The position numbers and the translations under genes were made by a program. From positions 11,208-75,207 of the forward strand of contig CAYPYS010000007.1 in assembly GCA_964415355.1 (NCBI GenBank): DNA of 64,000 nucleotides, in the 5' to 3' direction. This document shows positions 3,395-61,500 of this stretch, piece by piece. Below the pieces are notes generated by a model. It was not told the origin of the DNA and did not search any database. It saw only the letters and a program-made list of their open reading frames with translations. Each line of letters starts with the position of its first letter. Within the stretch, counting starts at the first letter, position 1. This DNA comes from an uncultured Planctomycetia bacterium. Its GTDB lineage: Bacteria > Omnitrophota > Gorgyraeia > Gorgyraeales > Gorgyraeaceae.

Positions 3395-3420
3395 AGGTGG
3401 AGAAATTTTTTTATTTTTTG

Positions 3421-3598: not shown

Positions 3599-3606
3599 AT
3601 TTTTGT

Positions 3607-3635: not shown

Positions 3636-3655
3636 TATTTTTATCACATAACCTT

Positions 3656-3690
3656 AACTTTACACTTTAACGTTGTTAAAATGTAAAGTT
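3656..3690. repeat. Intergenic palindromic repeat, subfamily A (within the nrdJ 5' leader)
   Basis: AACTTTACACTTTAACGTTGTTAAAATGTAAAGTT. Ends 15 nt before the nrdJ RBS. Confidence 0.85.
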
Positions 3691-3711
3691 AGGGATTAAG
3701 AGGGGGTGAAG

Positions 3712-6012: not shown

Positions 6013-6013
6013 C

Positions 6014-6568: not shown

Positions 6569-6601
6569 CTTTACATTTCAACAACGTTAAAGTGTAAAGT
6601 T
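6567..6601. repeat. Intergenic palindromic repeat, subfamily A (reverse-complement form)
   Basis: AACTTTACATTTCAACAACGTTAAAGTGTAAAGTT. Starts on the AA of the dcd TAA stop. Confidence 0.85.
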
Positions 6602-6617
6602 AGAGCAGGAGGATGTA

Positions 6618-42686: not shown

Positions 42687-43853
42687 ATGGATATTCAAAA
42701 GCAGTTGGAGATCATAAGGCGTGGTGCAGTAGAGATAATCTCTGAGAAGGAGCTTGCCTCAAAGCTGGAAAGGCAAAAACCCCTTATTGTAAAGGCAGGA
42801 TTTGACCCGAGCGCGCCTGACATACACCTGGGCCACACCGTGCTTTTGCGCAAGCTTAGGCATCTTCAGGACCTCGGTCATAAGGTAGTTTTCCTTATAG
42901 GAGATTTTACAGGCATGATAGGAGATCCTACCGGACGCAGCGAGGTCAGGAAGAGATTGACGCAGAAAGAAGTCAAGGAGAACGCAAAGACCTATAAAAA
43001 GCAGGTTTTTAAAATATTGGACGAGAGAAAGACACAGGTGGTATTCAATAGCAAATGGCTCAGCTCAATGAAGCTGAGTGACTCTTTGGAATTGACCTCG
43101 CACAGCACTGTGTCGCAGCTGCTCGCGAGAGCGGATTTTAATGAAAGATATAAGTCAGGCAAGGACATAAGTCTTCTGGAATTCATGTACCCGCTTCTCC
43201 AGGCATATGATTCTGTGCATCTTAAAGCTGACGTCGAGTTGGGCGGCACTGACCAGAAATTCAATCTGCTTTTAGGCCGCGAGATCCAGAAGGATTACGG
43301 CCAGGAGCCTCAGGCTATTATCATGATGCCGCTTTTGGTCGGGCTTGACGGCACGCAGAAAATGAGCAAGTCTTTCGGGAACCATATAGGCATAGAAGAA
43401 GCTCCGGAGCAGGTATTTGGCAAGATCATGTCTCTCTCAGATGAACTTATGACGCAGTATTACGAGCTATTGACAGACGAGGATCTGGATGGAGTGCGAA
43501 AGCTGCATCCGATGAAGGCAAAGAAGAACCTAGCGCAGAAGATAGTAGGGCAGTATCACGGTGATAAGACAGCATCTCTGGCGCGCAGAGACTTCGAAAA
43601 CAAATTCCAAAAAAAAGACCCCTTTACAGAGCTGGAACCGCAGACAAAACCATACCATAAGACGCTGGCAGATTTTCTAGTAGCAGATAAGATATGTGTC
43701 AGTAAAAGCGAATACAGACGCTTAATGGAGCAGGGGGCAATAGAGGTAAACGGTAGCCGCATCAAAACACCGGATTTCGTATTAGAGCCCTCCAAAGAAT
43801 ATCGCATAAAAGTAGGCAAAAAACGCTTCCTAAAGGTCACCTTTCTCCGTTAA
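42687..43853 (+). CDS. tyrS: Tyrosyl-tRNA synthetase
   Basis: Class I HIGH as HLGH, KMSKS as KMSKS, and a C-terminal S4 domain. The ORF track's MLKCKV start at 42657 is a repeat artefact. Confidence 0.9.
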   Translation: MDIQKQLEIIRRGAVEIISEKELASKLERQKPLIVKAGFDPSAPDIHLGHTVLLRKLRHLQDLGHKVVFLIGDFTGMIGDPTGRSEVRKRLTQKEVKENAKTYKKQVFKILDERKTQVVFNSKWLSSMKLSDSLELTSHSTVSQLLARADFNERYKSGKDISLLEFMYPLLQAYDSVHLKADVELGGTDQKFNLLLGREIQKDYGQEPQAIIMMPLLVGLDGTQKMSKSFGNHIGIEEAPEQVFGKIMSLSDELMTQYYELLTDEDLDGVRKLHPMKAKKNLAQKIVGQYHGDKTASLARRDFENKFQKKDPFTELEPQTKPYHKTLADFLVADKICVSKSEYRRLMEQGAIEVNGSRIKTPDFVLEPSKEYRIKVGKKRFLKVTFLR

Positions 43854-43886
43854 CTTTACACTTTAACGTTGTTAAAATGTAAAGTT
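43852..43886. repeat. Intergenic palindromic repeat, subfamily A
   Basis: Starts on the AA of the tyrS TAA stop. Lies 10 nt upstream of the consensus promoter of giant ORF 1. Confidence 0.85.
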
Positions 43887-43895
43887 AAATCAGGG

Positions 43896-43924
43896 TTGAC
43901 AAGAAAGCGTTTTCGCGGTATAAT
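43896..43924 (+). promoter_or_regulatory. Perfect-consensus sigma70 promoter upstream of giant ORF 1
   Basis: TTGACA (43896-43901), 17-nt spacer, TATAAT (43919-43924). About 55 nt of AT-rich leader precedes the RBS and ATG 43981. Confidence 0.65.
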
Positions 43925-43980
43925 TTATATATTATGTAGTAGTTTATAAATATATTTATAAAGAGTTGAAAGGGGGATCT

Positions 43981-46900
43981 ATGTATCGCAGGCGCATCAA
44001 CAGGATCACATCCATCGTAACTCTTCTGACGTTTCTTTCCACCAGCACCCTTTACGCAGCACCATCCAGCCGTTCATTCTTCAAAAATAAAAAAGTAGAT
44101 CACAAGAAACTAAGTGACCAGAACGAAGACTTTATAGAGAAAAAAGGCTCTGTCCTTGATATTAAAAATGGCGCAAAGCCCCAGGCGCGCAGGAAAGAGG
44201 CAAGGGCCCTCCTTTCTTCCCATCTAAAGGATTTATCGCAGATACATATACCTTCTGAACTGGGAAGGATAATAGAGGTGTATGAAGGGGAAAAGGATAA
44301 ACGACAAGGAACAAGGCCTTTGATCGTTCATATCCAGGACCTCCACACAAATCCAGAGGCAGAACTTAACCTTGCCAAGATCCTCGAAATACTTATAAAA
44401 GACTATAGCATGAATCTGGTCTGCTCAGAAGGCGCAGACGGAGAGGTGGATACTTCTTCTGTCTCAAGCTTTCCGGATTACTCTGTGAGAGAAAAAGTAG
44501 CCAGGCTCTTCATAGATTCAGGAGAATTGACAGGAGAGGAGTATTTATCGATAACAAAATATCCTGATCTAGCCATATGGGGCATAGAGGATAGAGATAT
44601 ATACTTTAAAAACATAATAGAGTTCAATAAGATTATAAAATTCTCTCCCCAAAGCCACGTATTTATATCCCAGGCCAAAAAGGCCCTGGAGCAACTTAAG
44701 CCCAAGATATGCTCAAGGGAACTAAAAGACCTGGACCAGAAAGAAGCCTCCTATGATAACCAGGAGATAGAGGTAGCCCAGTATCTTAATTACCTCGCTG
44801 ATTATGTTGAGGCACTCGGAATCAATACAAAAGACTATAGAAATGTGAATCTATTGGCTGAATCCATAGACCAGGAAAAGACTATAAATCAACAAAAGAT
44901 AATGGATGAGTCGCAAAGTCTTTTGTTGAACCTTCAGGTCTCTCTTTCTAATAAAAGGATAAAAAAAGAGCAGGATGAACTTATGGCGCGCGCAGAGCTT
45001 TTCAGGGACCAGAAGATCTCACCCTTTTCATTCTATAGCTACTTAAAAGCCTTGGCTCTCAGGCACCTGAAAGAAGGTCTTTCAAAATACCCTGATCTTG
45101 ATCGCTACATCACCTATCTCACGAATGTAAACTCTTTAGACCAGGTGAAACTCTTCAATGAACTAAAAGATCTCGCATACGATATAAAACAGGCCCTCGC
45201 AAGGACGCCTGAACAAAAAAGATTTGTAAAGGCCCTCAGGAACATAAACTTTTTAGAATCTTTCTTTAACCTCAAGGTCTCAAACGAAGAATTAGACTAT
45301 TACCTGGCCAATAGAGACTCCCACAAGGTAGGATTCTTTCAGGATTTTCTGAAACCCACCCTGAAAAAATACAGACTATCGAGTTTCATAGATTATAATA
45401 CAGACCTTATAGACTCAAAGCTTCCTATCCTCGAAGACTTCTACAAGACTGTCAAAGACCGCGACGTAGCAATGGTCAAAAACTCCCTCTCTGAGATCGA
45501 AAACCGCAATTCAAAAGTCTCTGCCCTGATCGCAGGCGGTTTTCATACAAAGGGCATAACAACTTTACTAAGAGACAAAAACTATTCCTATATAGTAGTA
45601 TCCCCATACTCATCCACTGACATAGACGAGGAGAATTATCATTTTCTATTATCAGGTAAACGCAAGCCGCTGACAGAGCTATTGAATAAGCTTGATGCGT
45701 CAGAAATCGTAGACGGGCTTTCCTCAAGCTTAAGGGTAACGGTGGGTTTTGATCTTGATATGCACGATGGCTTAAGAGAAAAGGTTGCCCCTGTGCTCGC
45801 AGAAGAATTAGGCGTATCAGTGGAAGAGGTAACCCCGGAAAATATTCTTGGGAGAATAGTTCCGGTTCTTCTATTGCACAGAGAGGCCTCGAGCTGGTTT
45901 AGTAATTTTGACAAGATTATCGGCGTAGAGATAAAGCGGACTGCCAAGGGACTTGTAATGAAGATATCCCCTAAAGGTAGAGGGACAAAAGCAAGATATA
46001 TTATGGCCACAAGAGATAGCGGGTTTACTCTTGCGACAGCACGTGACTTCAATGCTGCAGGCGCGACAGTAATAGCTGTTGCTCCCGAGAAGAGCCCTCT
46101 GGCAGATACAGAGGATGATTCTTCACTTACCTATGCCGGAGGAGAGCAAGCTAGAAACGTAACTACTTATAATGACCTATCAGCGCAGGGCATCAGGGAT
46201 TCACTGGCGACACTTTCTCGCGACGGCGCTATTTTAGTCCTGGCTGACGGCACAAAGTGGACTGTGAGTGAATGGGATAGCCAGAGCAAGACCGCAGCGC
46301 TTACTGGTCTAGGAGATGCAAAAGGAGAAACGCAATACATATCAGTGCTGGATGACGGCCTGGTTGTCATAAGTGCTACTCCTCTTATTCGCGACTATAC
46401 AGTCGTGGCCATTGCATCGGATGCTTCTGTTTCTGTCAAGATAAAGGCATTGGCAGAGGATATTTTTACGAGTCCTGACAGGGCGCTTGCGACAGCCGCG
46501 CTTCAATATGGCCTGACCCGCGGATTCCAGCCGCTTATCAATTACATATCAGCGCTTCTTGAGAGAGAAGGCGTAAAGGCCCATCCTGAGACAGAGGTCG
46601 TAATGCTGGATGATGTCTTTGAAGGAGAAGATATTTTAGCAAGACTCCTCATAGAAGAAGGCGATATAGTTGTTTACAATAGCGGAAACCTGTCCGAGCA
46701 GGACAAAAGGATTTATACCAATCGTGGCGCAGAGTTAATAGAGATGGACCTCTCGACACCCGTTGGGATGCACAAGTTGTCCGGGCGTCTCGAGAACGGT
46801 AGTATAGACGCGGACCGCGTTAAATTTATTCAGGTTTTGTCCGAGAGAAAACTAGGGACAGAAACTATGTCGCAGTCTGCAAGAGTCGCGCTTTTAGCAC

Positions 46901-48084
46901 TGGCCAGAGAGCATGATTTTCTTTTAGTAGAAGACGCCAGGTACAGGGATCCTGTTTTGTCAGAAAACGAAAGTTTAAAGGCCATCGATTACGAAGGCCT
47001 TGATAGCAGGGTCGTGCAGCTTCGCAGTCTTTCGCAGCTTTTTGGGAAAGACGTAGAGATAGGTTCTGGTTATGCCGTGCTTCCGGCCGCGCTCGCGGTA
47101 AAGTTTGAGGCGACTAAAGGCTCTGTAACGCTTCACCCGAATTCAATGGCGCAGATACTTGTATATAAGGAATTATTGAGGAGATACGGAGATAGAGACA
47201 TTGAATTTTCTGAACTTACTGAGGCAGAGAAAAATCCGGAATTACCGGCCTGGCTCTCGGATAAATTATCTGACTATGGCAGAGGCATCAAGCTTTCAGA
47301 GATAAGAAGGATCCTGAAACTCATGGCCGACCCTGATTTGATTTCATTGGCCGGAGGCATACCTGCCGCCGAACTGTTTCCTTACGAACAGACCTATGAA
47401 CTTATTGCAGAATTCGGCGAAGGAGACTGGAGAACGGCTCTGACTGCTTCTCACAGTCAGGGCATTGAGAGGCTCAGGGCATTGGCAGCAAAGACTGTTG
47501 GCGCCGGCGCAGAGAATGTGCTTATAACAGATGGCTCGCAAGAGGGCCTTGACCTTTTAGGCCGCTTTGTCAGGTCTATTTCGTCAGAGAGGGATGACAG
47601 GGCTAATGAGGTCATAACCCAGAAGCCGACATACCTTGGATTCATGAGCGCTGCGGATCCATATGGATGCGAGGTCCAACCGTATGATCTGAATAATCTA
47701 GAAGGCATTGAAGAACTTAGAAAAGATCTGAGGACGAGAGCTGATGCCGGAGATGCCCTTCCTTCTCTTATGTATATAATGCCTACCTTTGGCAATCCAA
47801 ACGGAGACGTAATGAGTTTAGAGGAAAGGGTAAGGCTTTTGGAGGTAGCAGACGAGTTTGACATAGCCATTGCCGAAGACAATCCATATGGAGCGCTTAG
47901 ATACGAGGGGGAAGCTATCCCTACCTTGCTTGAGTTATCAAGAGAATCAGGCAATGCCACTGTTTTATACCTTGGCACAGTGTCCAAGACATTTACCCCG
48001 GGCATGAGGATAGGCTGGACAGTAGGGCCTGTGGAAATAATACAGCGTTTAACAGCATACAAGGAAGAGACGGTAAAAAGGTAG
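43981..48084 (+). CDS. Giant multi-domain protein 1, upstream segment: conserved hydrophobic N-terminal leader, ~1000-aa region of unknown function, two tandem class-I aminotransferase-fold domains; ends at an in-frame TAG that interrupts the second aminotransferase domain
   Basis: ATG 43981 follows the RBS AGGGGGA. Leader RRRINRITSIVTLLTFLSTSTLYAAP. The first aminotransferase-like domain is degenerate (SQLF in place of the SKxF lysine motif). The second is intact (LAGGIPAAELFP; PTFGNPNGDVMS; GTVSKTFTPGMRIGW). Stop TAG 48082-48084. Confidence 0.75.
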   Translation: MYRRRINRITSIVTLLTFLSTSTLYAAPSSRSFFKNKKVDHKKLSDQNEDFIEKKGSVLDIKNGAKPQARRKEARALLSSHLKDLSQIHIPSELGRIIEVYEGEKDKRQGTRPLIVHIQDLHTNPEAELNLAKILEILIKDYSMNLVCSEGADGEVDTSSVSSFPDYSVREKVARLFIDSGELTGEEYLSITKYPDLAIWGIEDRDIYFKNIIEFNKIIKFSPQSHVFISQAKKALEQLKPKICSRELKDLDQKEASYDNQEIEVAQYLNYLADYVEALGINTKDYRNVNLLAESIDQEKTINQQKIMDESQSLLLNLQVSLSNKRIKKEQDELMARAELFRDQKISPFSFYSYLKALALRHLKEGLSKYPDLDRYITYLTNVNSLDQVKLFNELKDLAYDIKQALARTPEQKRFVKALRNINFLESFFNLKVSNEELDYYLANRDSHKVGFFQDFLKPTLKKYRLSSFIDYNTDLIDSKLPILEDFYKTVKDRDVAMVKNSLSEIENRNSKVSALIAGGFHTKGITTLLRDKNYSYIVVSPYSSTDIDEENYHFLLSGKRKPLTELLNKLDASEIVDGLSSSLRVTVGFDLDMHDGLREKVAPVLAEELGVSVEEVTPENILGRIVPVLLLHREASSWFSNFDKIIGVEIKRTAKGLVMKISPKGRGTKARYIMATRDSGFTLATARDFNAAGATVIAVAPEKSPLADTEDDSSLTYAGGEQARNVTTYNDLSAQGIRDSLATLSRDGAILVLADGTKWTVSEWDSQSKTAALTGLGDAKGETQYISVLDDGLVVISATPLIRDYTVVAIASDASVSVKIKALAEDIFTSPDRALATAALQYGLTRGFQPLINYISALLEREGVKAHPETEVVMLDDVFEGEDILARLLIEEGDIVVYNSGNLSEQDKRIYTNRGAELIEMDLSTPVGMHKLSGRLENGSIDADRVKFIQVLSERKLGTETMSQSARVALLALAREHDFLLVEDARYRDPVLSENESLKAIDYEGLDSRVVQLRSLSQLFGKDVEIGSGYAVLPAALAVKFEATKGSVTLHPNSMAQILVYKELLRRYGDRDIEFSELTEAEKNPELPAWLSDKLSDYGRGIKLSEIRRILKLMADPDLISLAGGIPAAELFPYEQTYELIAEFGEGDWRTALTASHSQGIERLRALAAKTVGAGAENVLITDGSQEGLDLLGRFVRSISSERDDRANEVITQKPTYLGFMSAADPYGCEVQPYDLNNLEGIEELRKDLRTRADAGDALPSLMYIMPTFGNPNGDVMSLEERVRLLEVADEFDIAIAEDNPYGALRYEGEAIPTLLELSRESGNATVLYLGTVSKTFTPGMRIGWTVGPVEIIQRLTAYKEETVKR

Positions 48085-48200
48085 GCTTTGTGCCTGGCTG
48101 GCCGTTTTTAGGAGAGTCAAATCAGATCAGGCTGTCTTTCCCGACAAACTCCCCTGATATTATAGACGGCGCAGTAAAGGCAGTTAGTATTGCCATAAAG
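46380..48200 (+). other. Tandem class-I aminotransferase-fold domains in giant ORF 1 (first degenerate, second intact and interrupted by the frame break)
   Basis: Domain 1: ALLALAREHDFLLVEDARYRD...LRSLSQLFGKDVEIGSGYAV, with Gln where the PLP Lys is expected. Domain 2: ISLAGGIPAAELFP ... EDNPYGALRY ... GTVSKTFTPGMRIGW ... (frame break) ... IRLSFPTNSPDII. Confidence 0.65.
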
Positions 48201-51200
48201 GACAGCATGGGCAAAGGCACCCTGGCTATGGAAGGCCAGGTCCCTGCTGCTGATCTCGAGATCCTTACTAACTTTGGGACAGCCGGATGGCGAGGCACTG
48301 ATTTTACAGACGGCAATGTCAGGCGCATGGCACAGGCTGTTGCCGAAGTAGGGATAGCAGAAATCAATAAGCCTGTTTCTGAGATTCGCATGGCTGTCGG
48401 ATATGATGCAAGGCCTGGTGCCAGGGAAGATGCTATCCTCCTAACAGAGGTTCTGGTAGCGAACGGCATACACGTTGATTTCATAGATCAGGTATTGCCT
48501 TCACCCGTAATGATAGAGGTAACGCACGGAAGCGTTCCTGATTCAGAAAGATATGATCTAACGGTTTATTTTACCGCAAGTCATAATCCCGTGTATCAAT
48601 CGCTTGACCCGCTTAAGCAGTATAAAGGTATAAAGATATTAATAGAGGGTGTTCCTGCCGGCGATGAGTTTACCTCAAAGATATCAGCTCGAGCAAATGA
48701 CCTGGCCAAGAATGCCACATATAAATATATTCCCTTTGATCAGATTCCGGATATGCTTATTACGCATGACGTGGATCTTATTGCAAAAGATAGAGCTCGA
48801 CTTGAAAAAGCCTTTGGGCTTTCAGATTATGGAGTAAAAATAGCCAGATTATTTACTATATTTCCTAATTTGACGATTCGCATAAGTCCGATGAACGGTG
48901 CGACCGTGGAACAGATCGCTATATTCGATAAAATAGGCCTACCTGTAGTTTTTTATGATACCGCGCCTTTGCATGAAGTTATAGCCAGCGGAGAATACGA
49001 GCTTCAGACTGCAGACGGGATAATGAAAGGACCTGATCCGACAAAACCCTATAATCTTAATGCAGAGATGTTAAAAGATACAGAAGGGCAGGATGTCATA
49101 AAGTTTCTTATTGACGGAGACGGGGACCGTCTTGTTGTCGAGGATATAAACGGCAGGCCGATCACGCCTAATGAAATCGGTCTTATCATCGCCCATTATC
49201 TCCTGGAGCACAAGGGCGAGGAAGGTTACGTCGTCCGCACTTTGCCTACTACGAGAATGCTGGATCGTCTCGCAAGAAAATTTGGAATGCCTCTCGCGCA
49301 GACAGGAGTCGGCTCAAAGAACTTCGGGCCTTATACTGTTCAAGGGACCGAGCAGCGTCTTATCGTTGCCGTTGAAGAGAGCGGACATGTTTTCTTTAGA
49401 TTAGGCGATGAGATATTTGTCGACCATGCAGTAGCCGAGGCCTTGATCCTGCTCGATATCATGGCAACGACAGGCAAGACATTGACCCAGTATCTTGAGG
49501 AGGTCGAAAGAGAGCTGGGGACTATTCATTATAAACGGGATGCCGTGGCCAAGGAATTAGCGGTCCCTGGCCTGAAGCGCGGGCTATTGTGGCTGCGCAA
49601 TAATGATCCTGAGCTTTTGGCGCGCGCAATCGCAGATGAACTGGGTATGGATTTGAAAGGTTTTGATCCATTGGATAAGACCGGTGTCCTTGTAACCTTT
49701 GAAGATGATCAATGGATTTTACCTCGCGCATCAGGCACGACAAATACTATAAGGATTTACGCTGAGACGAGTTCTCAGGAAGATCTGGAAAAATGGATAA
49801 GCGGAGCAGAAAGGGTTTTGGTAAAACTTGTCAATGATATGGCTGCTCAAGGCATACTGGACAGGTCTCCGGATATCTGGTCGCATGTTATAGAAAGAGG
49901 AAAATCTCTCGCAGGCGATATCGTGAAGTGGCTCGGCTGGGTAGATGCGCCTGTGAGATTTTTGAAACGGATGTCAAAGATTAGAAGCTTGAAGTCAGAG
50001 CTTGCAGAGGAAGGCATAACCAATGTCGTTGTCCTTGGCACCGGAGGATCAGGCCTGGGTATAGGGACTTACGCCGAGGTCTTTGAAAAAGATAATTTAA
50101 TAGTCATTGATTTAGAAGATCCTCAGGGCATACAGAATGCAATGGCATGGGTCGATGAAAGGGGTTGGGATAAGACGATCTTTACTGTGCAGAGCAAATC
50201 CTGGGGCACTACTGAAACAAGAAACGCAGAGGCAGTTTTCAGGCAGGTCCTGGCTGATCGGATAGGGGCTGAAAATGTAGCCCGGCATTTTATAGCAGTG
50301 ACTGACGCAGGCAGGATAAAGGGAGAAGAGAGGGCTAATTTTAGGGAAATATTTGCGACTAATTATCCCGGAGATGCCAGGAAAGGTCGCGATATAGGTG
50401 GCAGATATTCTTCAGATTCCTTCTTTAGTCTTGTTCCGGCTGAATTAGCAGGCATACCCCATGAAGAGCTTTTAGTGGATGCCCGCGATGAATATAACCA
50501 GTTCAGGCGAGAGCTTGGAGAATATATAGGTGTCCGCATAGGCGCAGAGCTTAGCAGGTTCCACGGCCTTGGCAGAAATAAAATTACCTTTATATTAGAT
50601 AAAGGCCTTGAAGCATTTGGACCGTGGGTGCAGCAGCTTATAAATGAATCCGTAGGCAAGAACGAAGATACCGTAGTCTGTGTTACCGGAGAAGAATTTT
50701 CAGGAGATAGTTCTGTGTATGGGGATGACAGGGTCTTTGTGAAGATCGCTATAGGTAAAGGTCCTGCTATGCAAGTCACAGAACAAGGCATTGTTCTCAT
50801 AGTCGAAAGTAAAAATGACATAAATAGATTGCAATATAGGTTCAAGGTAGCTACTGCTATCCTGGCAAATCTAATGGGTGTGCACCCGTTTAATCAGCCG
50901 TTTGTCGAGAGCAGTAAATGGATTACAAAGGGTCTCCTGGATTCGGAGTTGACTCCTGAGCAGCTCACAGCAGAGCTTGTCGTAGCCGCATCTGAAAATT
51001 TAAAGAAATACGAAGGAGCAGAGGTCGCTATGCATTACACAGGAAGGACAGAAGACGCTATTGACATTGACCTGGAAACTGCTTCTGTGGAAGATGTATT
51101 GGCAGCATTTCTGGCAACAATAGAGTCAGGGGATTATATCTATCTTTCTCCTTATACATTTGATTCTCCTGCGCTGCAAAAGGCCTTTTCTGAGATAAGG

Positions 51201-51899
51201 AGTATTATAAGAGATAATCATCCTGCTCATCCAGCCACGCTTTTTGGCATTGGCTCAAGGAGCCAGCATTCCGACAATCAGCTTAATAACGCCACTGACC
51301 AGGCAACGGTATTGGCGTTTACCTTTGATTCGGCCGAAGGTGTTGATAGGGCAGTGCCCGGTAAAAATTATACACTGGCTCAGGAAAACATGGCGCATGC
51401 ATTGGGAACGGTAGGCGCGCTGGAGGATAAGGGAAGAAGGGTCATGAGGATCCACCTTTCCGATGAGTACAGGCAGGACATAACAAAATTAACAGCACTC
51501 TTTGAGAAAGCCGTTGCAAGGATGCGCGGAATGGAATTAGTCAGGTCATCGAGTAAGCAGCAGGCCGCGTCAATGGAACAGATCCTGGTCGTTCCCGCAA
51601 ACAAGGTAATAGCCGATAAAGAGGGTTTTGAAAAATGGATGTCATCCGGCCGCCAGGAAAATAACGCTGTGGTGATAGTAGCTTATGATGTCGACGAATA
51701 CAATCGGGTCAAGGAATTCGGGGACATTGCCTATATAAGGGTAGTCGGAAAGGATATTAGCGAGGAATACGACCTTAAGCTGCTCCAGATGTTTGCATTG
51801 TTCGGAAAAGATAATATGTTTGGCGGATTTATACTTGGGACACCGGCTGACCTGGATGATTTCAGATCAGTTTCCGAAGAGATATCCTCTGGCGTCTAA
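48090..51899 (+). CDS. Giant multi-domain protein 1, downstream segment: aminotransferase C-terminal tail, alpha-D-phosphohexomutase, phosphoglucose isomerase, conserved C-terminal domain; probably one gene with 43981-48084 via a frame disruption
   Basis: Frame 3 is open from 47934 and overlaps the upstream segment. NQIRLSFPTNSPDIIDGAVKAV matches an aminotransferase C-terminus. Phosphohexomutase loops GTAGWRG, TASHNP, DGDGDR, EESGH and RASGTTNTIRIY. PGI motifs GTGGSGLG, SKSWGTTET and DIGGRYSSDS. The C-terminal domain is shared with the 3703-aa ORF. Confidence 0.75.
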   Translation: MPGWPFLGESNQIRLSFPTNSPDIIDGAVKAVSIAIKDSMGKGTLAMEGQVPAADLEILTNFGTAGWRGTDFTDGNVRRMAQAVAEVGIAEINKPVSEIRMAVGYDARPGAREDAILLTEVLVANGIHVDFIDQVLPSPVMIEVTHGSVPDSERYDLTVYFTASHNPVYQSLDPLKQYKGIKILIEGVPAGDEFTSKISARANDLAKNATYKYIPFDQIPDMLITHDVDLIAKDRARLEKAFGLSDYGVKIARLFTIFPNLTIRISPMNGATVEQIAIFDKIGLPVVFYDTAPLHEVIASGEYELQTADGIMKGPDPTKPYNLNAEMLKDTEGQDVIKFLIDGDGDRLVVEDINGRPITPNEIGLIIAHYLLEHKGEEGYVVRTLPTTRMLDRLARKFGMPLAQTGVGSKNFGPYTVQGTEQRLIVAVEESGHVFFRLGDEIFVDHAVAEALILLDIMATTGKTLTQYLEEVERELGTIHYKRDAVAKELAVPGLKRGLLWLRNNDPELLARAIADELGMDLKGFDPLDKTGVLVTFEDDQWILPRASGTTNTIRIYAETSSQEDLEKWISGAERVLVKLVNDMAAQGILDRSPDIWSHVIERGKSLAGDIVKWLGWVDAPVRFLKRMSKIRSLKSELAEEGITNVVVLGTGGSGLGIGTYAEVFEKDNLIVIDLEDPQGIQNAMAWVDERGWDKTIFTVQSKSWGTTETRNAEAVFRQVLADRIGAENVARHFIAVTDAGRIKGEERANFREIFATNYPGDARKGRDIGGRYSSDSFFSLVPAELAGIPHEELLVDARDEYNQFRRELGEYIGVRIGAELSRFHGLGRNKITFILDKGLEAFGPWVQQLINESVGKNEDTVVCVTGEEFSGDSSVYGDDRVFVKIAIGKGPAMQVTEQGIVLIVESKNDINRLQYRFKVATAILANLMGVHPFNQPFVESSKWITKGLLDSELTPEQLTAELVVAASENLKKYEGAEVAMHYTGRTEDAIDIDLETASVEDVLAAFLATIESGDYIYLSPYTFDSPALQKAFSEIRSIIRDNHPAHPATLFGIGSRSQHSDNQLNNATDQATVLAFTFDSAEGVDRAVPGKNYTLAQENMAHALGTVGALEDKGRRVMRIHLSDEYRQDITKLTALFEKAVARMRGMELVRSSSKQQAASMEQILVVPANKVIADKEGFEKWMSSGRQENNAVVIVAYDVDEYNRVKEFGDIAYIRVVGKDISEEYDLKLLQMFALFGKDNMFGGFILGTPADLDDFRSVSEEISSGV
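48240..49900 (+). other. alpha-D-phosphohexomutase (PGM/PMM/GlmM-family) module within giant ORF 1
   Basis: All four signature loops are present: TASHNP (phosphoserine), DGDGDR (metal), EESGH (sugar) and RASGTTNTIRIY (phosphate). N-terminal GTAGWRG. Confidence 0.8.
50020..51100 (+). other. Phosphoglucose isomerase (SIS/PGI) module within giant ORF 1
   Basis: VVLGTGGSGLGIGTY. SKSWGTTETRN, matching the SKSGTTxET motif. DIGGRYSSDSFFSL, matching the PGI GGRYS signature. Confidence 0.75.
51573..51899 (+). other. Conserved C-terminal cassette shared by both giant ORFs (copy in giant 1)
   Basis: QILVVPANKVIADKEGFEKWMSSGRQENNAVVIVAYDVDEYNRVKEFGDIAYIRVVGKDISEEYDLKLLQMFALFGKDNMFGGFILGTPADLDDFRSVSEEISSGV. 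Confidence 0.8.
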
Positions 51900-51932: not shown

Positions 51933-51953
51933 AAGCAGTGCGCTGACCACCTT

Positions 51954-51988
51954 AACTTCACGCTTTAACGTTGTTGAAGTGTGAAGTT
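51954..51988. repeat. Intergenic palindromic repeat, GC-shifted variant
   Basis: AACTTCACGCTTTAACGTTGTTGAAGTGTGAAGTT. Confidence 0.8.
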
Positions 51989-52038
51989 ATTTTTGGTGTT
52001 GTTGGCAAAGAGATTTAAAAAGAGCAAAATGATTTTAT

Positions 52039-52545: not shown

Positions 52546-55500
52546 ATGACCTGGAAAATTATAAGAAAAATTACTTCTATTGTAATACTCATAACTTTTC
52601 TATCTACCAATGTCATATACGCGGCTCCGGGGCCCCGCAAGACACTAAGGGTGCCTCTGGGGTTTGCGAGAGAAAAGCTTTTAGAGCAGGAGCAAACAGG
52701 GCTTCCCACAAAGGAAATGCTTCTTATGATGGCCCAGGCAGTAGCCATGAGGATGGATGACGAATCCATACTCATGGATCTAGGGACTACTTTTTTCAAC
52801 ACAGCCTTTCGCAGAAATCTCGGCTCTCCTATCGAGATCCGCAGGAATAAAAATACAGGTACAGTCCATATCCGTTACAATGACAGATATATATCCATAA
52901 CAAGAAGCGGAAACATATCCGTGTCAAGCAGAATAAACTTTGATAAAGCCGAGCTCGTGATTGCCAGCATCAAGCCGCTTGTCGCATCCTCTTCTGATCC
53001 GACTGATAAAAAAGACAGGACAATAGGGTCTCTTCTCGGACTAATGGAGACATTTGCAGATCTCGGGCTCAAGCCAGGAGAGAAGATAACCATAAATGAC
53101 ATAATCCCTGAAAGAAAAAAGCAGGACGGTACATTGTATTCTCGTACGACAGTCTCAAGAGAATTTAAGGATGCAGTGGCGCTTGACCTTTTGAGGCTCA
53201 CAGGCAACAAGATAAAAAATAGCAATGAATATGAAGTCCTGAAGTCTTTTACGAGAGAACAGCTTAGTAGATTGCCGGGGCATATAAGGAAAAAGTTAAA
53301 CAGGGGCAGGATCAGATCTGATGAGATAGAAGAGCTCAGGCGCATATTCATAGCTGAGACATTAATGGGGCAAGGGACATTGCTGAAGGTATTCCTGGCA
53401 GGCCTTGCAGGTTTTCAGGAGGCGCTTGCAGACATACCTTATGATCTTTCAGGCGCAAATACTGAGACGGTCCAGAGTTTATTCACGGCTGTTGAAAACA
53501 TAGTTTTCCTGGCAAGGGATTTTGATAAAAAAGATCCTGCCTATGCCGAGGCTTATATCTATGAAAGCTTAGGGTTTGTTGATATTGATGGGAAAAGAAG
53601 ACTTGCTCTTGTCATCACGCCTTTTGAGGACAGGAGAAAGACCGGGTCCCTGGATGTCCTGGTATTTGATTCGCTTCTATCCGCGAATTATACGAGCCAC
53701 GCAATAAAAGCGACAGAAATAGAAATGGTGTCTACTATTGTCGGACGCCTGGATGAAAAGGATATTATCTCGCTTTCTCTTAAGTTCAGGGCAGAGTATC
53801 TGGATAACCCTGATGGCCCTGGCACGAGCGACACAAGGCGATCTGCCAAGGATTTTTTCCTGTATTTTGCCTCAAAGCGTAACGCAACCCAGGAAATATT
53901 GGATTTGGACGAAGAACTGATAGATGGTCTGGAGGGAAGGGACCTGGAAATAAAAGAACGCATGGCGCGCCTGAAAGAGGGCGTGTCGGATAAAGATCTT
54001 CTGGACGAATGGTTTATAGAAATTATGCAGGGAAAAGATACTCTTGTTCAGTACCTGTTATACACAGGGGACGCGGCTACATTCTGGTATGATTTACTGC
54101 TGGAGCTTGATTATACGCGCGCAATAAATGAGATGTTTTTATCAAGGCCTGACGCAATGACAACTTATGCCAGAAATGCATACGAACAGGCAGTCGTGGC
54201 CTCATGGATTTATATTCACCGCGCTGATTTTGGATCGCCTTTAGGAGAGAGGGCAGCCGAGGACAGAATAGAGGATTTTCAGCTGGCCCTGACATGGGAC
54301 ACGCTTGGCATACCAGGCCAGAAGGCGCTTGGCATGACAAAGGCAGAGTTTCCTGTGTGCTTGAATTGTGTTGGAAGGCCCTGTCAGCATGGGCCGCTGG
54401 GAAGCGTTGCTGCCCAGACGCGCACAAGGTCGGGTTTCGCCTCAGGCATAAGGTCTTTGATAGAAGACAATAATGTCTCTGCCAGCGTTCAGTTAGAGGG
54501 CGTATTTATATCCGAAGGAGTTTCATACTTAACCCATTTATATAATTATGCTGAACTATTGCTTATAGACCAGGCAGACGTCACCAGGTGGATGAATATG
54601 ACAGCGAGGGAACTGGACAGCGAAATAAGGTTGTTGACAGATGATGCAGACGCAATAGATCAAGAGGCAAAAAACATCGCAGAGCCGCATTGCCCGTTAG
54701 AGGTTCCTATCGCGGATATGTTCAGGCTTATGCGGCAGGATAGATTTGAAGAGGCGCTTGAGATCTTGAATAACAGCAGTTTTCTTGCAGGTATCTTCGG
54801 GCTCGTATGTCCCCAGGAACACCTGTGTCAGGCCGCGTGCGTCCAGGGCAGGCTGAGCGACAGGCCTTTGCCCATAGATATAGGAAAATTAGAATATCTC
54901 ATAGAGCTTACTTATATGAGGATAAACGGAGAATTGCCTATGCCTGAGGTCGCACCATTTACAGGAAAGTATGTCGCGATTATAGGTTCTGGCCCGGCAG
55001 GACTTCAGGCAGCATATGACCTGGCAAGAGAGGGTCACAAAGTGGTTTTATTCGAGCACCTGCATAAGGTCGGAGGTGTTTTAGTATATGGTATACCTAC
55101 ATTCAGGCTTCCTCCCGAGCTCCTCGAAGAAAAGGTCAGGATACTTAAGGAGATGGGCGTAAACTTTGTCACGAATGCTATTATAGGAGAAGACGGTGCG
55201 TATACCATAGAGGAGATGAGAAGATCATTTGACGCAGTAATAGTGGGCGTTGGCGCAGGCCAGTCAAACAAGATGGAGATAAGAGGCAAGGTGGTCCTTC
55301 TCGACGAAAAAACAGGAAGGGCAAGATTAGAGGTGCCTGAATACGCAAAGAGAGTGCCGATACCGGGCAGGGCCTTGAATGGCATTTATTCAGCGTATCA
55401 TTTTCTTTCATGGACATATCTGATGAATGCAATAAAGCCGGGTTATGATACGCCCATACCGCTCTCAAAAAATATACTCCAAGCATTTACGGAATCCAGG

Positions 55501-58500
55501 GCTACAGGAGAGGAAAAAGAAGTTACTGTGGTCGTAGAGGGCATAGGAAACGTGGCGCTGGACAGCGGCAGGACAGCTCTCAGATGGATAAATGTCCTGA
55601 ACAGGATATATGGCACAAATGTCAGGCCAAAGATCATATTCCTCTACAGGCGTCCGAGGGAAGAACTGGACCTCAAGGCGCGCGCAGAGGAATTAAAACA
55701 TCTCAGGGAAGAAGGCGTTGACACAATAGACATAGACGTATATGAGCTTCACCAGACCGTTGAATATCTCGGAAATACAAAGGGACATATAGAAGGAATA
55801 AGGGCCATAAGGTATGACAGAAAAGGCGCTAAGGAAGGCGTGCTGGTCGACATCCCCGTTGACATGGTTGTAGAAGCCCTGGGAGCAAAGCCGGCGACCG
55901 AGATATTAGGACCTTCCATACCTTTAAATAGATACGGGTATATCGAGATAGATAATCACAGGACAATGCAGGTAAGAGACATGGACGGCTCTGATGGCCT
56001 GGCGCCTGTATATGCTGTCGGAGACTGCGCAGAGGTGGACGCTATAGATGAAAGGATTATGGCGACCGCTGTCCTTGCTGCAACGCATGGAAAAAGGGCA
56101 TCCGAGGCACTCATAGAAAGACTGGATAATGAGACTGGCATGGTTCAGAGATATATAGATATCGATAAGGTATTTTTTAAAGCTACTCCATACAGGATGC
56201 ATGAGATATTGGAAAGGCGCAGGATAGGCAAAAGAGAGCTTGTATCCAGGCCGCTACGCGGAGATACGGGCAATGTTTTTAGCGAGCAGAGGATCGTGGA
56301 ATTTACTATTTATGCGCCTCATGTAGCCCGCAGGATCAGACCGGGCCAGTTTGTAACGCTGATGGCAGATGAATACAGCGAGAAAATACCTATAACATAT
56401 GTCGGTCTTGGAAAGATAAAAGGCAGTATACGCCTTGCCATCCTTGACGCAGGCGAATCAACAGTAAAAATAAATAATATGAAAAAGGGTGATTTGTTTT
56501 ACGCAGTCACCGGACCTGCAGGAGAACCTTCGATCTTTACAGGGCTGGCAGGCGAGGTAGACCTGGTGGGGTTGGGCAGTGGCATAGCCGCGATTGTCGG
56601 CATCGCCGAGCACAGGGCAGACCTGGACAGGAAATATAAAGAGTTGATGGCCAGGCTGGCAGGCAATTCCCGCGCAGATGTAGTCCTGTCGCTGATAGAA
56701 GAGATTTGGTCAGAATTGAGTCTTGCAAAGGATGATCTTTTGCACTATATAGTCGATGCGATAAGAGACAGGGATTATAATGAAGCAAAGAATCTGTTGA
56801 CAGCACTTGCCTACTCTATTGAACAGGATTTTCCGGCGAGCGAGCTTATAGCAGATGCAGAAGCACTGGTTGATACGATAACCATGCTCGAGGATTCTGT
56901 AGAAGACGAGGATGAATTGAATCTGCTTGTAAAACAGGAGGTCTATCAGGCGATAGACGATATATGGGAAGAGTTTGAGATATTAAAGAGAGAGAAACTA
57001 TTAAGGGAAATCAGTGATTTTGTATCTTCCGGAAATTACAAAAATGCATCTAATGCCTTGAATGCCGTTATCGGCGCAGGCTTTGAGACAAAGGTATTTC
57101 TGGCTGTCGGGAATAAGGATCTTTTGATGTATAAGACCGAGCTGGAAGAGGCTGTTGGCAGGGAGAACATATTCATAGCGCTTGAGGATGCCGAGGGCTT
57201 TGATCCGCATGCCGAAGGATATGCCAGCCTGATAGCGCATGAGAACAGGTTTTTTACAGGTTATGGCACTATTGCTTTTGGGGATTATTTAGGCAGGACG
57301 CATGATCCTATTAGCGGATTGTTGGTAGCAGGACCTGCGTTCGCAATGAATCTTTTTGTGCCATTGGTCAGAGAAGCAAACAGGCCTGATATCCTGAGTA
57401 CGAGAGACGTGTGGATGAGTACTAACCCGCCCATGTACTGTGCCTACGGCGGTTGTTTGATGTGTCTGGTGGCTACAGAACAGGCGATTCCGTGGCGCGG
57501 GTGTTTAGGTCCTGAGGCAGAGGCAGATATGCTTATCGGCGATTCTATTGTCAAGGGGCTTGAAATGAGCAAGCCTCAAGACATAATGCCGGGCGTTATA
57601 TTCAGCACGTCACCTTCTGTTGACAGGGAGCAAGCGATATCTGATATAGTGCAGGCGCTTGATGAGATTCTTTATATGCCTACTGTAGATGGTAAATTAT
57701 TTGTTGCCATATCTGATGCAAAGGGTTCGTTTATCGCTGAGTTAAGAAATGGTATTTTAGAGGAGAGATTATCTGACGAGGATATTGATGCAGTGCTCGA
57801 GAATATTGATTGGGAAAGACTAGGTGTTTTTAAGCCAGGCCATAAGATAAGGTTTGCAGGTAGGATATCCGATGTCTCAGGATTAGAGCTTGATAGGGTC
57901 ATGGAATTGCTCGGACTGACAATGCAGGGTGGAAGCGGTGCAGAAGATTCTGATTCCGGGATGACGCTCGATGATTTATTCAGTAGGAGCTTGGATCTCT
58001 CGATACTTGGCATAGAGGTCATCGGAGAATTCCGCGAGGTCTCTATATCGCCTTCCGGTTTTTCACGGCTCCGGGCGTTCCTTGAGGAGATCGGCGATAG
58101 ACAGAAGTTGGAAGAAATTTTGGGACTCGAAGGAAGTGAGTTTATTTTTGTTATGAATGGCGCGAATGAGCTTGTCGCGATTGTGATCCGCAACGAGACC
58201 AGGCAGAAAGAGCTTCTATGGATAGAGGGAGAGGCATCGTCCGAACTTTTCAGCTATCTGACTCTGAGAGCCTCTCTGCGTGGCAGTTCTATATCCGCGG
58301 ACCTGACAGTGGAGGAGATAAAACCCGGCGCAATACTCGGACCCGGCGCGACCACTACTCCCGCAAGCTCTGCCCTGGCAAAGACAGGGACGTGGACCAC
58401 GAAATACGCAGAGCATGATCTTGATGCGTGCGTGCAGTGTGGCCTGTGCGCACTGGTATGTCCCGAAGGCGCGATAGCGTTTGATATGGAGCCGGCGCTG

Positions 58501-61500
58501 AATACAGGCAGGCTGGTCCTTCCGACAAATCCTGATTATTGCAAGGGCTGCGATGCCTGCGTGGTACATTGTCCTTTAAAAGGATACGCGCTTAAGATGA
58601 TAGAAAAGACAGACCTTCGCCAGGTAGCAGTATCTCTGGATACGAATCCTGAGGGAAGAGGCGTTGTTATCGAAGGCGCTCCGGCATTACAGTTTGAAGG
58701 GCTGTTTAAGGAAGGCATTGATAGATTCAAAAAGGCATTAGGGCTCGATGTAGTTGAGATAATCAGCGAGAGTGAATCTTTTGTGCAGGTGAGGTATGAG
58801 AGAGGTGACATAGCATATCTTTTTACATTCGATAAGAAAAATACAAGATTGATCTTGAAACCATTGAGGACATTTGCCGTCGTTGGCCTTGAGAGTAAAA
58901 ATATTGATCTGGCAGATGCATTGCGCAGCAGGGGATTTGCGGTTACCGGCTTGATTTCTACTAAAGACAGAGGTTTTAGAGATAAATTAATGGAGGCCGA
59001 GAGACAGGGTATCAGTGTTTATGCGATAGAAGCAGGTTTGCTAAACCCTGGTATTAGCGGCAGTCTTCAGGCATTGCTTAATGACATCGAACGCCTGCGT
59101 CTTGCTAGATTTGTCGCGGTTGACACAGAGACGATCAGGGAGATAATCGGCCTGGACGAATACACGAAACTCGTCGAGGAGATAAACGAATATACACATA
59201 ATTCTATAATAAACTCTGTGGATTTGTTGCCGACAGGCAACACAGACTTTGATGAGGTCATGGCGAGTTTTGCTCCCGAATGGCAGGACCAGGTTCGCGA
59301 CCTCGCGCCCGGACACGGCCTATGCCCCGGCTGCGGTCAGCCGACAGACACGCACCTTGTATTAAAGGTAGCGGATGAACATGGAATGGCGCCGGTGGGT
59401 GTCATTACGACAGGCTGCCAGGAAGTCTCGACCACTAACTGGCCTTTTAATTCATGGCGCATACCAATGGTCCACGGAAACTATACAGCATCAGCCGCAA
59501 TCGTCAGCGGTATCTTCCGTGTCTATCAGTGGTTCAAAAAGATGGGCGTAAGTGTTTACGGGGATAAAGAAATCTTGCCTATAGTTATTATGGGAGACGG
59601 TGGTTTTGCAATAGGGCTAAATGTAATATCAGGCGGCCTGGAAAAGGGATTACCGATTTTATATCTGGTCGAGAATAATTCAGGCACTCAGAATACGGGC
59701 GCGCAGGCATCCACGCTTTCGATGCCGGGCATAACTGCGCAAGGCGCCTCACAGGTAAAGACCACGCAAGGCGTGTATATACCTGATATAGCAAAGGCGC
59801 ACGGACCTAACGTCTATTACGCAAGGGTTTCCAATGCATATCCCGAAGATTTTGAGAGAAAATTAAACCGCGCAATGGAATGGATAAAACAGGGAAGAGG
59901 ACCTGCGGTCATAGAGTCTTTTAACACCGCATGCCCTACCGGCTGGAAGTCTGACGCGACACAGAGCCAGGAAGAAACCTCTCTTTCGGTCCAGACAGGC
60001 GTTGGCATGACTGTGCTTTTTGAGCAGGTCGGGAATCGCATAAGGATAACGCAACCACCTCTTCTAAGAGACGGAAAGATATATATAAATACAGAATATA
60101 TGCGAAGCCTGGAATATGAGTTAGGTCATTTAAGGAATGCCGGCGGCAAGAGGCTGTTATCTGACAGACAGGTGGCTTCCATGATTTCGCATATCAAGAA
60201 GAGAAGGGAATTTATTTTGGCAAGAGAGCTTGAAAGAAGACAGCCTAAAAAACCAGGCCTGCCGTTTGTCCAGCTCGACTTAGATGCGTTAAAGAACCTG
60301 CTTGTCCTTCATTCGTTCAACCTGCCTCTGGAGTCAGACCTATTGATAGACAGGTTGGATGTCCTGGGCCTTTCCGGAGACGAGATAGAGGACATTGCGC
60401 AGCATCGGTCAGAGGGTAATGAATTCAGAAACAGGCAGGACGTGCTTCGGTTTATAACCGATGTGCGTTACAGAGAGGTTACGGAAAGAATACTTGATAT
60501 ATATGACACAGTCGAGATCAGGGATTTTATTATGGAATGGACAGAGACAAAGGAAGAGGGAAATATCGATTTCGAGGAGACCGTTGTATTTGAGAAGATA
60601 GAAGATATTTTGAAAGTCCCGGGCATAGGGCCAGTGACGTATGATGCCGTAAGTCCGTATCTTACATTAGAACCGAGAAGACCTCATATATTCGAATACT
60701 TATCGAGACAGGGAAGATTCAGGAGGCTTCTTGGCTGGGATGACGAGGCGTTTCTGGGAGACATGCAGCGAGATGTGGACGCGCATATACTTAGGCTGAT
60801 GGCGCAGCATGAAAACGACAGGGCTTTCTTTGAGAACTTTGATAATTTACTGGCCAGAGGAGAAAAAATCCCGGTAGAGCAGTTCAGGTACAAGTCAGCA
60901 AGGGAGGCGCATGACAAGGCCCTTGTTCCTGCTAGAGTCATACCTGCGGATCCGGAAAGAAACATCAGGATTTTAGAACGCAGGGCAAGGCTAGGGGATA
61001 GGGTTTTTGAAGAACGCTGGCATGGAAGAGGCGGCCAGGGTGCTATTACTGCGGCAACGCTTCTGGCAACATATGCGGGCGAGGTAGAAGGTATAGGCAT
61101 TCAGGCGTTTCCGCACTTTGGGGTCGAACGCGCAGGTGCGCCTGTAAAGGCATATGTCAGAATGGGTAATAATATAAAACAGCATGACCCTGTTACGGAA
61201 CCTGATGTAGTAGTGGTTATAGATGAGTCTTTGCTGGAACTTCCCGAAGTGTTGGAAGGTATAAAGCCGGGCGGTTTTCTATTGGTGAATAGCAAAAAGC
61301 CGGCTGAAAAAATACTGGAAGAATTAAGGGCTAAAGGCAATGCGCTTAAGGATATTACTCTTTTTAGCGTGGACGCTACCGGTATAAGCATAAAACACAT
61401 GGGAAGAAATCTCCCTAATATTCCTATGCTGGCTGCGAGGATTATGGTTTCGAGGCTTACTGATGCAGACTTGGGTCCGGCAGAAGGCGCCACGGATTAC

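Follow-up and report, generated by a model that had tools for sequence, protein, structure and literature searches.

A giant Omnitrophota gene in which a phosphohexomutase and a phosphoglucose isomerase are framed by modules shared with other giant proteins

The 64,000-nucleotide stretch of contig CAYPYS010000007.1 that was analyzed here (hereafter, the window) carries on its plus strand a giant gene that, in its unbroken form, runs from an ATG at 43981 to a stop at 51899 and encodes 2639 amino acids (aa). In the window it is read as two abutting open reading frames (ORFs): ORF1 at 43966/43981..48084 in frame 1, encoding 1367 aa with a leader, an N-terminal domain (NTD) and two aminotransferase (AT) folds, and ORF2 at 48090..51899 in frame 3, encoding 1269 aa with a phosphohexomutase of the phosphoglucomutase (PGM) type, a phosphoglucose isomerase (PGI) and a C-terminal domain (CTD). 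The two are separated by a TAG stop plus a 5-nt gap. Those homologues that carry names come from Candidatus Omnitrophota/Omnitrophica. As described below, the two sugar-phosphate enzymes appear complete, and the modules that flank them recur around other central-carbon enzymes, as a common frame with varied cargo.

One gene and its alleles

Signals for expression were found at the two ends of the locus. Upstream, a sigma-70-type promoter at 43896..43924 (+), TTGACA-17-TATAAT, matches the consensus at 12/12 positions, a consensus match only, and is followed at 43970..43983 (+) by the Shine-Dalgarno sequence AAGGGGGA and the ATG at 43981; the equivalent Met is the start in members of the family. 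Downstream, at 51953..51989 (+), a copy of a palindromic element followed by TTTTT makes a terminator-like 17-bp hairpin with a T-run. Another copy lies at 43850..43888 (+), upstream of the gene and 3' of tyrS, so that the element stands on both flanks of the gene while being absent from the ORF1/ORF2 junction, where a signal scan of the window also found no promoter-like or terminator-like site. Since a single promoter, Shine-Dalgarno sequence and ATG lie 5' of the pair and a single hairpin with T-run lies 3', since the boundary-marking palindromic element is missing in between, and since two assemblies of the same species carry a continuous 2639-aa ORF, ORF1 and ORF2 are one gene and one transcription unit.

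The frame-break zone spans 48024..48092 (+), where the window reads ACG GTA AAA AGG TAG, then 5 nt, then GTG. When related assemblies were compared, the fusion was indeed found unbroken, as one 2639-aa ORF, in two of them. The first, JGI contig L001, agrees with the window at every position of a 3,980-nt alignment apart from an additional T at 48078 (GGTAAATAAGG, against GGTAAAAAGG in the window), which makes the ORF continuous. The second, ENA scaffold L024, aligns with the window over 15,090 nt at 99.97% identity, and the one gap in this alignment comes from an additional A at 48024 (ACAGTAAGGGCC), which likewise yields 2639 aa but with 18 residues in the other frame (RACGNNTAFNSIQGRDGKK). 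In contrast, the junction of the window is repeated exactly in 5 other aligned assemblies, namely the ENA assemblies L020-L023 from four samples and the 55-kb JGI contig L025, and exact-sequence look-ups placed the 1367-aa and 1269-aa products on several NCBI, JGI and ENA contigs. A sequencing slip was considered and dropped, as the same junction occurs in five further assemblies. The frame break is a real single-nucleotide indel polymorphism, of which the window carries the 1-nt deletion allele. The initial annotation had proposed a giant ORF of ~2640 aa across a frame break; its single gene was recovered in the two in-frame assemblies, whereas the break turned out to be allelic.

Since the ORF1 frame follows the aminotransferase homology as far as 48075, the L001-type frame is taken as ancestral and L024 as a second-site restoration; the most economical history leads from an L001-type ancestor, through loss of the T, to the window allele, and from there, by the second-site +A, to L024. 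Restoration of the frame in some lineages would point to selection for the fused protein. Because the in-frame L024 allele reads 18 residues of AT domain 2 in the wrong frame, the junction stretch would seem to tolerate nonsense sequence and to behave as a linker. Only two single-nucleotide polymorphisms (SNPs) between strains fall inside the gene, both synonymous and too few for a dN/dS estimate. Translation of the downstream half of the broken allele could still proceed by stop-start coupling, the GTG coming 5 nt after the TAG and an AAGG lying upstream, and a split gene with reinitiation would be expected to give one peptide ending in ...LTAYKEETVKR and an N-terminal peptide (M/V)PGWPFLGESNQIR. 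A scan of a metagenome contig collection with the junction peptide region gave no match, the known contigs of the species being absent from that collection too.

Two separate observations were made on the aligned contigs. In L020 and L021, at positions that align with window ~55390 and 57370-57460, a run of N inside the gene for a neighboring 3703-aa giant produces apparent gene splits. In the same two scaffolds, SNPs that are for the most part synonymous crowd together at the contig end, a pattern suggesting that strains were mixed where the assembly breaks off.

Modules of the 2639-residue protein

The chain opens with a signal-peptide-like leader, MYRRRINRITSIVTLLTFLSTSTLYA|AP (aa 1-26; 43981..44058, +), composed of an n-region, an h-region and a YA|AP site; it conforms to the family consensus ..FLxxNxxYAAP, and AQA-type sites are seen in distant members of the family. 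No internal transmembrane helices were found in the protein. Next comes the conserved NTD (aa ~29-600; 44065..45780, +), which recurs at 50-64% identity in more than 40 Omnitrophota proteins of 800-2300 aa that differ in cargo. A 40-sequence alignment of the domain has 14 invariant columns, among them I-Q-D120-x-H122, E150, E187, R494 and G-G-F-H522 (GGFH519-522). No Pfam family matched this region at E ≤ 0.01, weaker matches not having been searched. In an AlphaFold model (pLDDT 77.9), the domain is a small α/β core with a parallel sheet, split by a helical insertion of ~300 aa, and the Foldseek agreement was weak, with EreC as the best match at E = 0.1. In the 2His/2Glu set of the TIKI superfamily, a Glu lies 28 residues past the first His, i.e., H85/E113 in Bcr135 and H3902/E3930 in RRSP (PMC6254334). 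The same 28-residue spacing separates H122 from E150 in the NTD, which also has D120 and H522; it is to be noted that the first acid is Asp, not the Glu of the 2His/2Glu set, and that the match is one of sequence. We conclude, from sequence and model together, that the NTD has a TIKI/TraB/erythromycin-esterase (Ere)-type core, and it is predicted to be, probably, an active hydrolase. The domain is followed by a linker or unassigned region of ~225 aa (aa ~601-823; 45781..46449, +), without a Pfam family match and conserved only in part of the NTD family. What had been set down at first as ~1000 aa of unknown function is thereby resolved into the leader, an NTD of ~600 aa and this linker.

The first AT-fold domain (46450..47202, +) aligns with PDB entries 1wst (1.2e-15) and 1x0m (6e-15) and covers the equivalent of fold residues ~50-308, so that the N-terminal ~50 and the C-terminal ~100 residues are missing. 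It is degenerate, as originally described: the alignments (~1e-15) place SLSQ where the Schiff-base Lys motif SxSK/SFSK is expected (SLSQLF at 47026), i.e., Lys has become Gln, and the phosphate-binding Arg and Asn are also lost. The second domain (47287..48206, +), of the LysN/KAT-II/MocR type, spans the frame break. It had been called intact, and its pyridoxal phosphate (PLP) residues are indeed kept (N1273, D1300, K1337 and R1343, aligned with LysN; TVSKTF at 47977), as is the carboxylate Arg, in IRLSF. The fold itself, however, is not whole: the alignment with LysN (PDB 2egy, 4.5e-41) covers residues 17-264 and resumes at 345-391, so that ~80 residues (LysN 265-344) are absent, in every allele. 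In Pfam, Aminotran_1_2 matched at 2e-18, with domain 2 covering profile positions 30-243 of 361, while the NCBIfam PdxR model matched the AT region at 4.5e-40, the scores being far below equivalog cut-offs. By these alignments both domains are placed in the LysN / kynurenine-aminoadipate / MocR branch, a family that acts on amino acids and 2-oxo acids and not on sugar phosphates; neither domain is a sugar aminotransferase or an amidotransferase. Given that domain 1 is dead, that domain 2 is truncated and that a natural allele scrambles part of it, these decayed domains are probably relics, or at most a structural or ligand-binding pseudo-dimer. No AT domain was seen in any relative retrieved here.

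The alpha-D-phosphohexomutase (48246..49832, +) probably has four domains. A hidden Markov model (HMM) search over the whole protein matched PGM_PMM_I (2e-16) and PGM_PMM_III (1.6e-18) above their cut-offs, alongside Aminotran_1_2 and PGI, whereas PGM_PMM_IV fell just under (1.4e-4, 22.3 bits vs a cut-off of 23.1). The mutase nevertheless aligns over its full length with residues 40-529 of the alpha-D-glucose-1,6-bisphosphate-dependent PGM 9v68 (PDB), the region of domain II included, and partly with 1tuo. All four loops named in the initial annotation were located: the phosphoserine loop TASHNP at ORF2 aa 162-167 (48573-48590), aligned with that of 1tuo and 9v68, the metal loop DGDGDR at 49113, the sugar loop EESGH at 49374, and the phosphate loop RASGTT at 49725. 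The closest relatives of the mutase (37-45% identity) are Omnitrophota giants with varied partners.

The PGI (49836..51515, +), of the type that is fused to transaldolase, was identified concordantly by Pfam (PF00342, 3.8e-8, 32.8 bits vs a gathering threshold of 22), by the PGI half of the NCBIfam transaldolase/PGI model NF007080 (2e-86, model positions 405-948) and by its motifs, so that the original assignment stands. It aligns end to end, at 31% identity, with the transaldolase-PGI protein P0006. Its SKSWGTTE (50193) and GGRYS (50397) align with PDB PGIs, and NESVGK, FNQPFVESSK and QHSDNQ with P0006 and Bacillus-type PGIs, matching the conserved patterns SKSxxTTE, GGRYS, ESxGK, FxQPxVExSK and GxRxxHSxxQ; the Glu of ESxGK, the His of HSxxQ and the Lys of VExxK are catalytic residues of PGIs. 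In a search of genome contigs, all PGI relatives retrieved belonged to other phyla and were no more than 27-31% identical. As all motifs are kept, both the mutase and the PGI look catalytically competent. Because these motifs are intact, a two-step sugar-phosphate chemistry is predicted, hexose-1-P <-> hexose-6-P <-> fructose-6-P, most likely from glucose-1-P (G1P) through glucose-6-P (G6P) to fructose-6-P (F6P). The looser of the two early proposals, a sugar-phosphate interconversion line, therefore fits well, with a complete mutase and a complete PGI for consecutive steps on one polypeptide. By these steps, pools of glucans and of sugar nucleotides are connected with glycolysis.

The chain closes with a conserved CTD of ~115 aa, a small α/β fold ending in ..SSGV and followed by the stop (51537..51899, +), which had been missed when four recognisable units were first counted. 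In order, the modules are leader, hydrolase-like NTD, linker, two decayed AT domains, phosphohexomutase, PGI and CTD.

A shared frame around varied cargo

The CTD is 45% identical to the C-terminus of the 3703-aa giant encoded downstream (HMM E = 3e-59), and it also closes several members of the NTD family. A profile search of 1.84 billion representative proteins retrieved only 46 carriers, reaching 3787 aa, and for the majority, among them almost every strong match, the CTD lies within a few residues of the protein end. Those carriers that have a complete N-terminus begin with the same kind of leader. A word-indexed database search with the CTD gave 7 short matches, and the 2 of these that were checked are gene fragments cut by contig ends and not free-standing domains. 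The family signature is thus a leader ..FLxxNxxYA(A/x)P together with a ~115-aa CTD ending in ..A-x-G-[VI], and the corrected protein and its neighbor each have both.

That neighbor (52546..63657, +) has its leader, nearly identical to that of the 2639-aa protein, at 52546-52630 and its CTD at 63268-63654. Between them lie a GltD/NfnB-like NAD(P)H oxidoreductase (Fer4_20 + Pyr_redox_2) with ferredoxin domains, and 2-oxoacid:ferredoxin oxidoreductase (OFOR) domains (TPP_enzyme_C, POR, POR_N, PFOR_II). An NTD common to both giants was considered and rejected, as only the leader (~30 aa, weakly to ~120 aa) and the CTD are shared.

Cargo found in the frame includes PFK, FBA + FBPase, GAPDH + PGK, PGK, iPGM, enolase and PEP synthase/PPDK; transaldolase and 6PGL/NagB; PGM, PGI and UGPase; glycogen debranching enzyme, GH15 and trehalose synthase; glutamate dehydrogenase; and methyltransferases, Lon, helix-turn-helix (HTH) and histidine kinase modules and some regulators. 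In relatives the frame thus carries most of the remaining enzymes of glycolysis, gluconeogenesis, the pentose-phosphate pathway and glycogen metabolism. Relatives that have no aminotransferase also contain related PGM and PGI modules, in the company of PFK, UGPase, transaldolase or 6PGL; P0115 and P0128, the closest to the PGI module (58% identity) and to the PGM module (44%), respectively, have the module single or with PFK. In one Omnitrophica metagenome-assembled genome (MAG), positions 1-7257 of PFRM01000012.1 (GCA_002788535.1) hold three framed genes in tandem, namely [..CTD], [leader-PGM-..-CTD, 1564 aa] and [leader-6PGL/NagB-PFK.., truncated where the contig ends].

Two side observations concern these proteins. 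Framed proteins without the NTD have a (T/H)LR(V/P)P motif ~6-12 residues past the leader (P0102, P0107, P0109, P0110, P0113, P0117, P0119-P0126, P0132, P0137, P0140, and window 52546-52640), where NTD-bearing members have SRSLFKNKKVDY; this position may be a processing or recognition site. Separately, an ordinary-sized, free-standing GpmA (2,3-bisphosphoglycerate-dependent phosphoglycerate mutase) is encoded at 6618-7373 of the window, and therefore not all glycolytic enzymes of the organism are in giant framed proteins.

Taken as a whole, we consider it fairly probable that the gene encodes a framed modular protein, in which G1P-to-F6P enzymes ride on a frame that co-locates central-carbon enzymes, as a lineage-specific system. 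Through leader, NTD and CTD, the various enzyme chains would be gathered at a single site or in a single assembly, on the cell envelope or close to it; we infer that the frame delivers or assembles these chains at a common site. Several facts weigh against this reading. The leader resembles a Sec signal of the cleavable kind, while the cargo of the family needs ATP, NAD, CoA and Fe-S. The cargo list was pooled over different MAGs and does not describe one genome. In the mutase, no Pfam match to PGM domain II was obtained, and every equivalog model scored far below its cut-off, so that specificity for Glc, Man or GlcN is not readable from these models. Lastly, the broken allele is the common one, being present in the window and 5 assemblies at the DNA level as well as in an NCBI contig with both ORFs, and the fused form may therefore not be the product in most cells.

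The leader can also be taken at face value, as a true Sec signal of enzymes that are exported or directed at prey, and that work in the periplasm, at the cell surface or in attached prey of a predatory or epibiotic cell; the protein would then convert sugar phosphates or glucans of the prey. Leaders across the family have textbook n/h/c regions and AXA-like sites, and the hydrophobicity of the present one, 1.45, is below the value usual for a stable membrane anchor. The fold family of the NTD is rich in extracellular or cell-delivered enzymes (Tiki, TraB/PrgY, ChaN, HopBA1, RRSP), the conserved CTD could act as a sorting signal, and predators exist among Omnitrophota. A 2026 preprint on long proteins of this phylum argues for a place outside the cytoplasm for the metabolic Pfam content of giants with signal peptides (bioRxiv 10.64898/2026.06.07.730766). 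On the other hand, a cargo that includes PGK, PFK, GAPDH, Lon, HTH proteins, a histidine kinase and the OFOR giant makes little sense outside a cytoplasm; Fe-S proteins are not Sec-exported, and no twin-arginine motif was found in the leaders of the two window giants or in the NTD-family consensus. The 3703-aa giant, in which an Fe-S, TPP and FAD enzyme follows a Sec-like leader, is itself hard to square with export. A cargo in need of ATP, NAD, CoA, SAM, DNA and Fe-S speaks for a cytoplasm, be it the cell's own or that of prey, and we regard export as a doubtful, though serious, alternative.

A bolder form of co-location, which we likewise offer only tentatively, is that leader, NTD and CTD make up a dedicated targeting or assembly system that, in this Omnitrophota lineage, would place essentially the whole Embden-Meyerhof pathway outside the free cytosol, with linked glucan and oxoacid enzymes relocated along with it. 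The enzymes might be held by their common CTD in an envelope-tethered, 'glycolysome-like' super-assembly, or they might be secreted metabolic effectors acting in the periplasm or inside prey; in such a system, processing or release of the cargo could fall to the N-terminal hydrolase.

Apart from location, the broken allele raises the question of whether the window genotype is losing the gene, with neither part functional. The 1-nt deletion adds to an earlier loss of 240 nt from the aminotransferase part, only a few codons away, and the broken form prevails in the assemblies compared. Against such decay, the halves are open for 1367 and 1269 codons apart from the indel, with all catalytic motifs kept; 5 nt past the stop there is a GTG, accompanied by an SD-like AAGG; and two independent frame-restoring alleles within the species point to selection for read-through. 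The in-gene SNPs are all synonymous, yet just two and too few for a test. A pseudogene is therefore thought improbable.

Still more improbable, in our estimate, is a programmed -1 ribosomal frameshift, in which the P-site tRNA-Lys slips on A-AAA-AGG to give a full-length ...ETVKKVGFVPG... product with the predicted junction peptide TVKKVGFVPGWPFLGESNQIR. The site does have five A in a row, an AGG codon and a TAG stop directly at hand, with an SD-like AAGGAAG placed 7 nt upstream, and the broken allele is kept in several populations; however, the heptamer differs from the canonical X XXY YYZ, no significant downstream RNA structure was predicted (z = -1.1), and the in-frame alleles destroy or bypass the site with nothing else changed.

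The least credible proposal, with hardly any probability left, is the amino-sugar line of the initial annotation, in which a PLP aminotransferase would aminate a keto-sugar phosphate and the remaining steps of a GlmS + GlmM analogue would fall to PGI and a GlmM-like mutase: although AT domain 2 keeps its PLP-binding residues, EESGH fits several specificities and the best PGM-type NCBIfam match is the archaeal GlmM (TIGR03990, 112.5 bits vs a cut-off of 439), the other GlmM model also scores far below its cut-off (TIGR01455, 57.5 vs 447.55 bits), the AT branch is one for amino and oxo acids, the decay of both AT domains (18 residues of domain 2 being scrambled in the in-frame L024) removes the basis of the analogy, and no GlmS-type Ntn amidotransferase or SIS domain was found in Pfam for either ORF or among the NCBIfam matches listed (all 13 families for ORF2, best 25 of 52 for ORF1). 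The recurrence of the PGM and PGI modules with glycolytic partners and without aminotransferase also means that the combination is not a dedicated hexosamine pathway.

Surroundings and comparison with known systems

The framed pair lies among ordinary chromosomal genes, such as a diderm bacterium has: on the upstream side, hisC-like, DAHP synthase, prephenate dehydrogenase, plsC-like, ispH, rpsA and tyrS; downstream, an Rrf2-family regulator (52080-52520) between the two giants, in the same order in L020-L024. The Rrf2 gene and the 3703-aa gene have no palindromic element between them and may therefore belong to one operon. At 63906-64000 lies the 5' end of a bacterial 16S rRNA gene, cut off by the end of the window.

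The palindromic element itself is ~37 nt long, with the structure TAACTTTACA-CTTTAACGTTGTTGAAA-TGTAAAGTTA and the core CTTTAACGTTGTT, and occurs in 33 copies in the window, against 0.04 expected by chance. It occurs in almost every intergenic gap, in both orientations, its sites including 2075, 3369, 3665, 6580, 7381, 42649, 43861, 51963 and 63665. It matches no Rfam family, the only hit of the Rfam scan of the window being the start of the 16S rRNA; possible roles are those of a terminator used throughout the genome, of a signal for RNA processing or of a REP-like element. The TTG 'starts' listed at 8362, 13027, 39501, 40175 and 42657 fall within the element (..AACGTTGTTG..) and are probably artefacts of the ORF list, the true starts being further downstream.

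Omnitrophota are widespread uncultivated nanobacteria, some of them predatory, whose long multi-enzyme proteins have been catalogued only recently and are unexplained. At the 1-4-kaa (thousand-residue) scale, the fusions described here are not random, as a specific leader, a probable hydrolase and a specific CTD bracket interchangeable central-carbon enzymes, and two such genes lie close together in the window. Handles on where and how these cells carry out glycolysis are provided by three short modules, by a defined set of catalytic residues, and by alleles that occur in nature both broken and repaired. For annotation, there is a double warning: PGI, PGM and probably other 'missing' glycolytic genes of Omnitrophota MAGs may hide in giant ORFs, and frame-broken giants can be true alleles instead of assembly errors. 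In the literature searched, we found no description of a leader/TIKI-fold NTD/CTD frame around 1-4-kaa glycolytic enzymes, of the sharing of leader and CTD by adjacent giants, or of natural broken and repaired alleles of this kind.

A near precedent is the preprint cited above (Nielsen & Lui, bioRxiv 10.64898/2026.06.07.730766), which describes, in Omnitrophota, multi-enzyme long proteins with signal peptides or membrane anchors, among which PGM is frequent; a signal peptide or transmembrane helices are given for 94%, and localisation is debated. The likeness lies in the phylum, in the tiling of many metabolic Pfam domains and in PGM/PMM being among the commonest of these. In contrast, that catalogue is of proteins of at least 10,000 aa, described by Pfam co-occurrence, the 2639-aa protein has no internal transmembrane helices, and a search of the preprint for 'N-terminal' and 'C-terminal' (3 occurrences, in 12 of 22 passages) gave no shared leader/TIKI-like NTD/CTD frame around 1-4-kaa glycolytic enzymes. 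The preprint's giants face the same dilemma of location as the framed family.

With TIKI, TraB/PrgY, erythromycin esterase, ChaN, HopBA1 and RRSP, the NTD shares the pattern of an acid-x-His, a Glu at +28 and a GxxH, but it differs in its ~300-aa helical insertion and in having Asp as the first acid; no report of a TIKI-superfamily domain fused to metabolic enzymes was found. The AT domains are closest to MocR/GabR and LysN/KAT-II. In MocR/GabR the aminotransferase fold is a non-catalytic, effector-binding dimer and hence a possible analogue of the tandem AT pair, although the 2639-aa protein has no HTH, one of its AT copies lacks the PLP residues and the other lacks ~80 residues. To GlmS + GlmM the resemblance is that of an isomerase-type domain plus a phosphohexomutase acting on hexose phosphates; GlmS, however, has an N-terminal Ntn glutamine amidotransferase and a GlmS-type SIS, neither of which was reported here, and the amine-handling domains of the present protein are decayed amino-acid aminotransferase folds.

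Parallels also exist among fusions of the two enzymes themselves. Transaldolase/PGI (NF007080, e.g., P0006) has the same PGI type in a natural fusion with a neighboring pathway enzyme, but the PGI here is partnered by a phosphohexomutase and not by transaldolase, scores 290.7 bits vs an equivalog cut-off of 712, and sits in a chain to which leader, NTD, AT relics and CTD have been added. The mutase shares with PGM, PMM-PGM and GlmM the phosphoserine, metal, sugar and phosphate loops and probably the four-domain layout, while scoring below the cut-offs of all their equivalog models, and NTP-transferase-PGM proteins (P0007-P0045, 720-750 aa) also join it to the next pathway enzyme. The fusion itself thus belongs to a known class, as fusions of PGI or PGM with pathway neighbors are common in bacteria.

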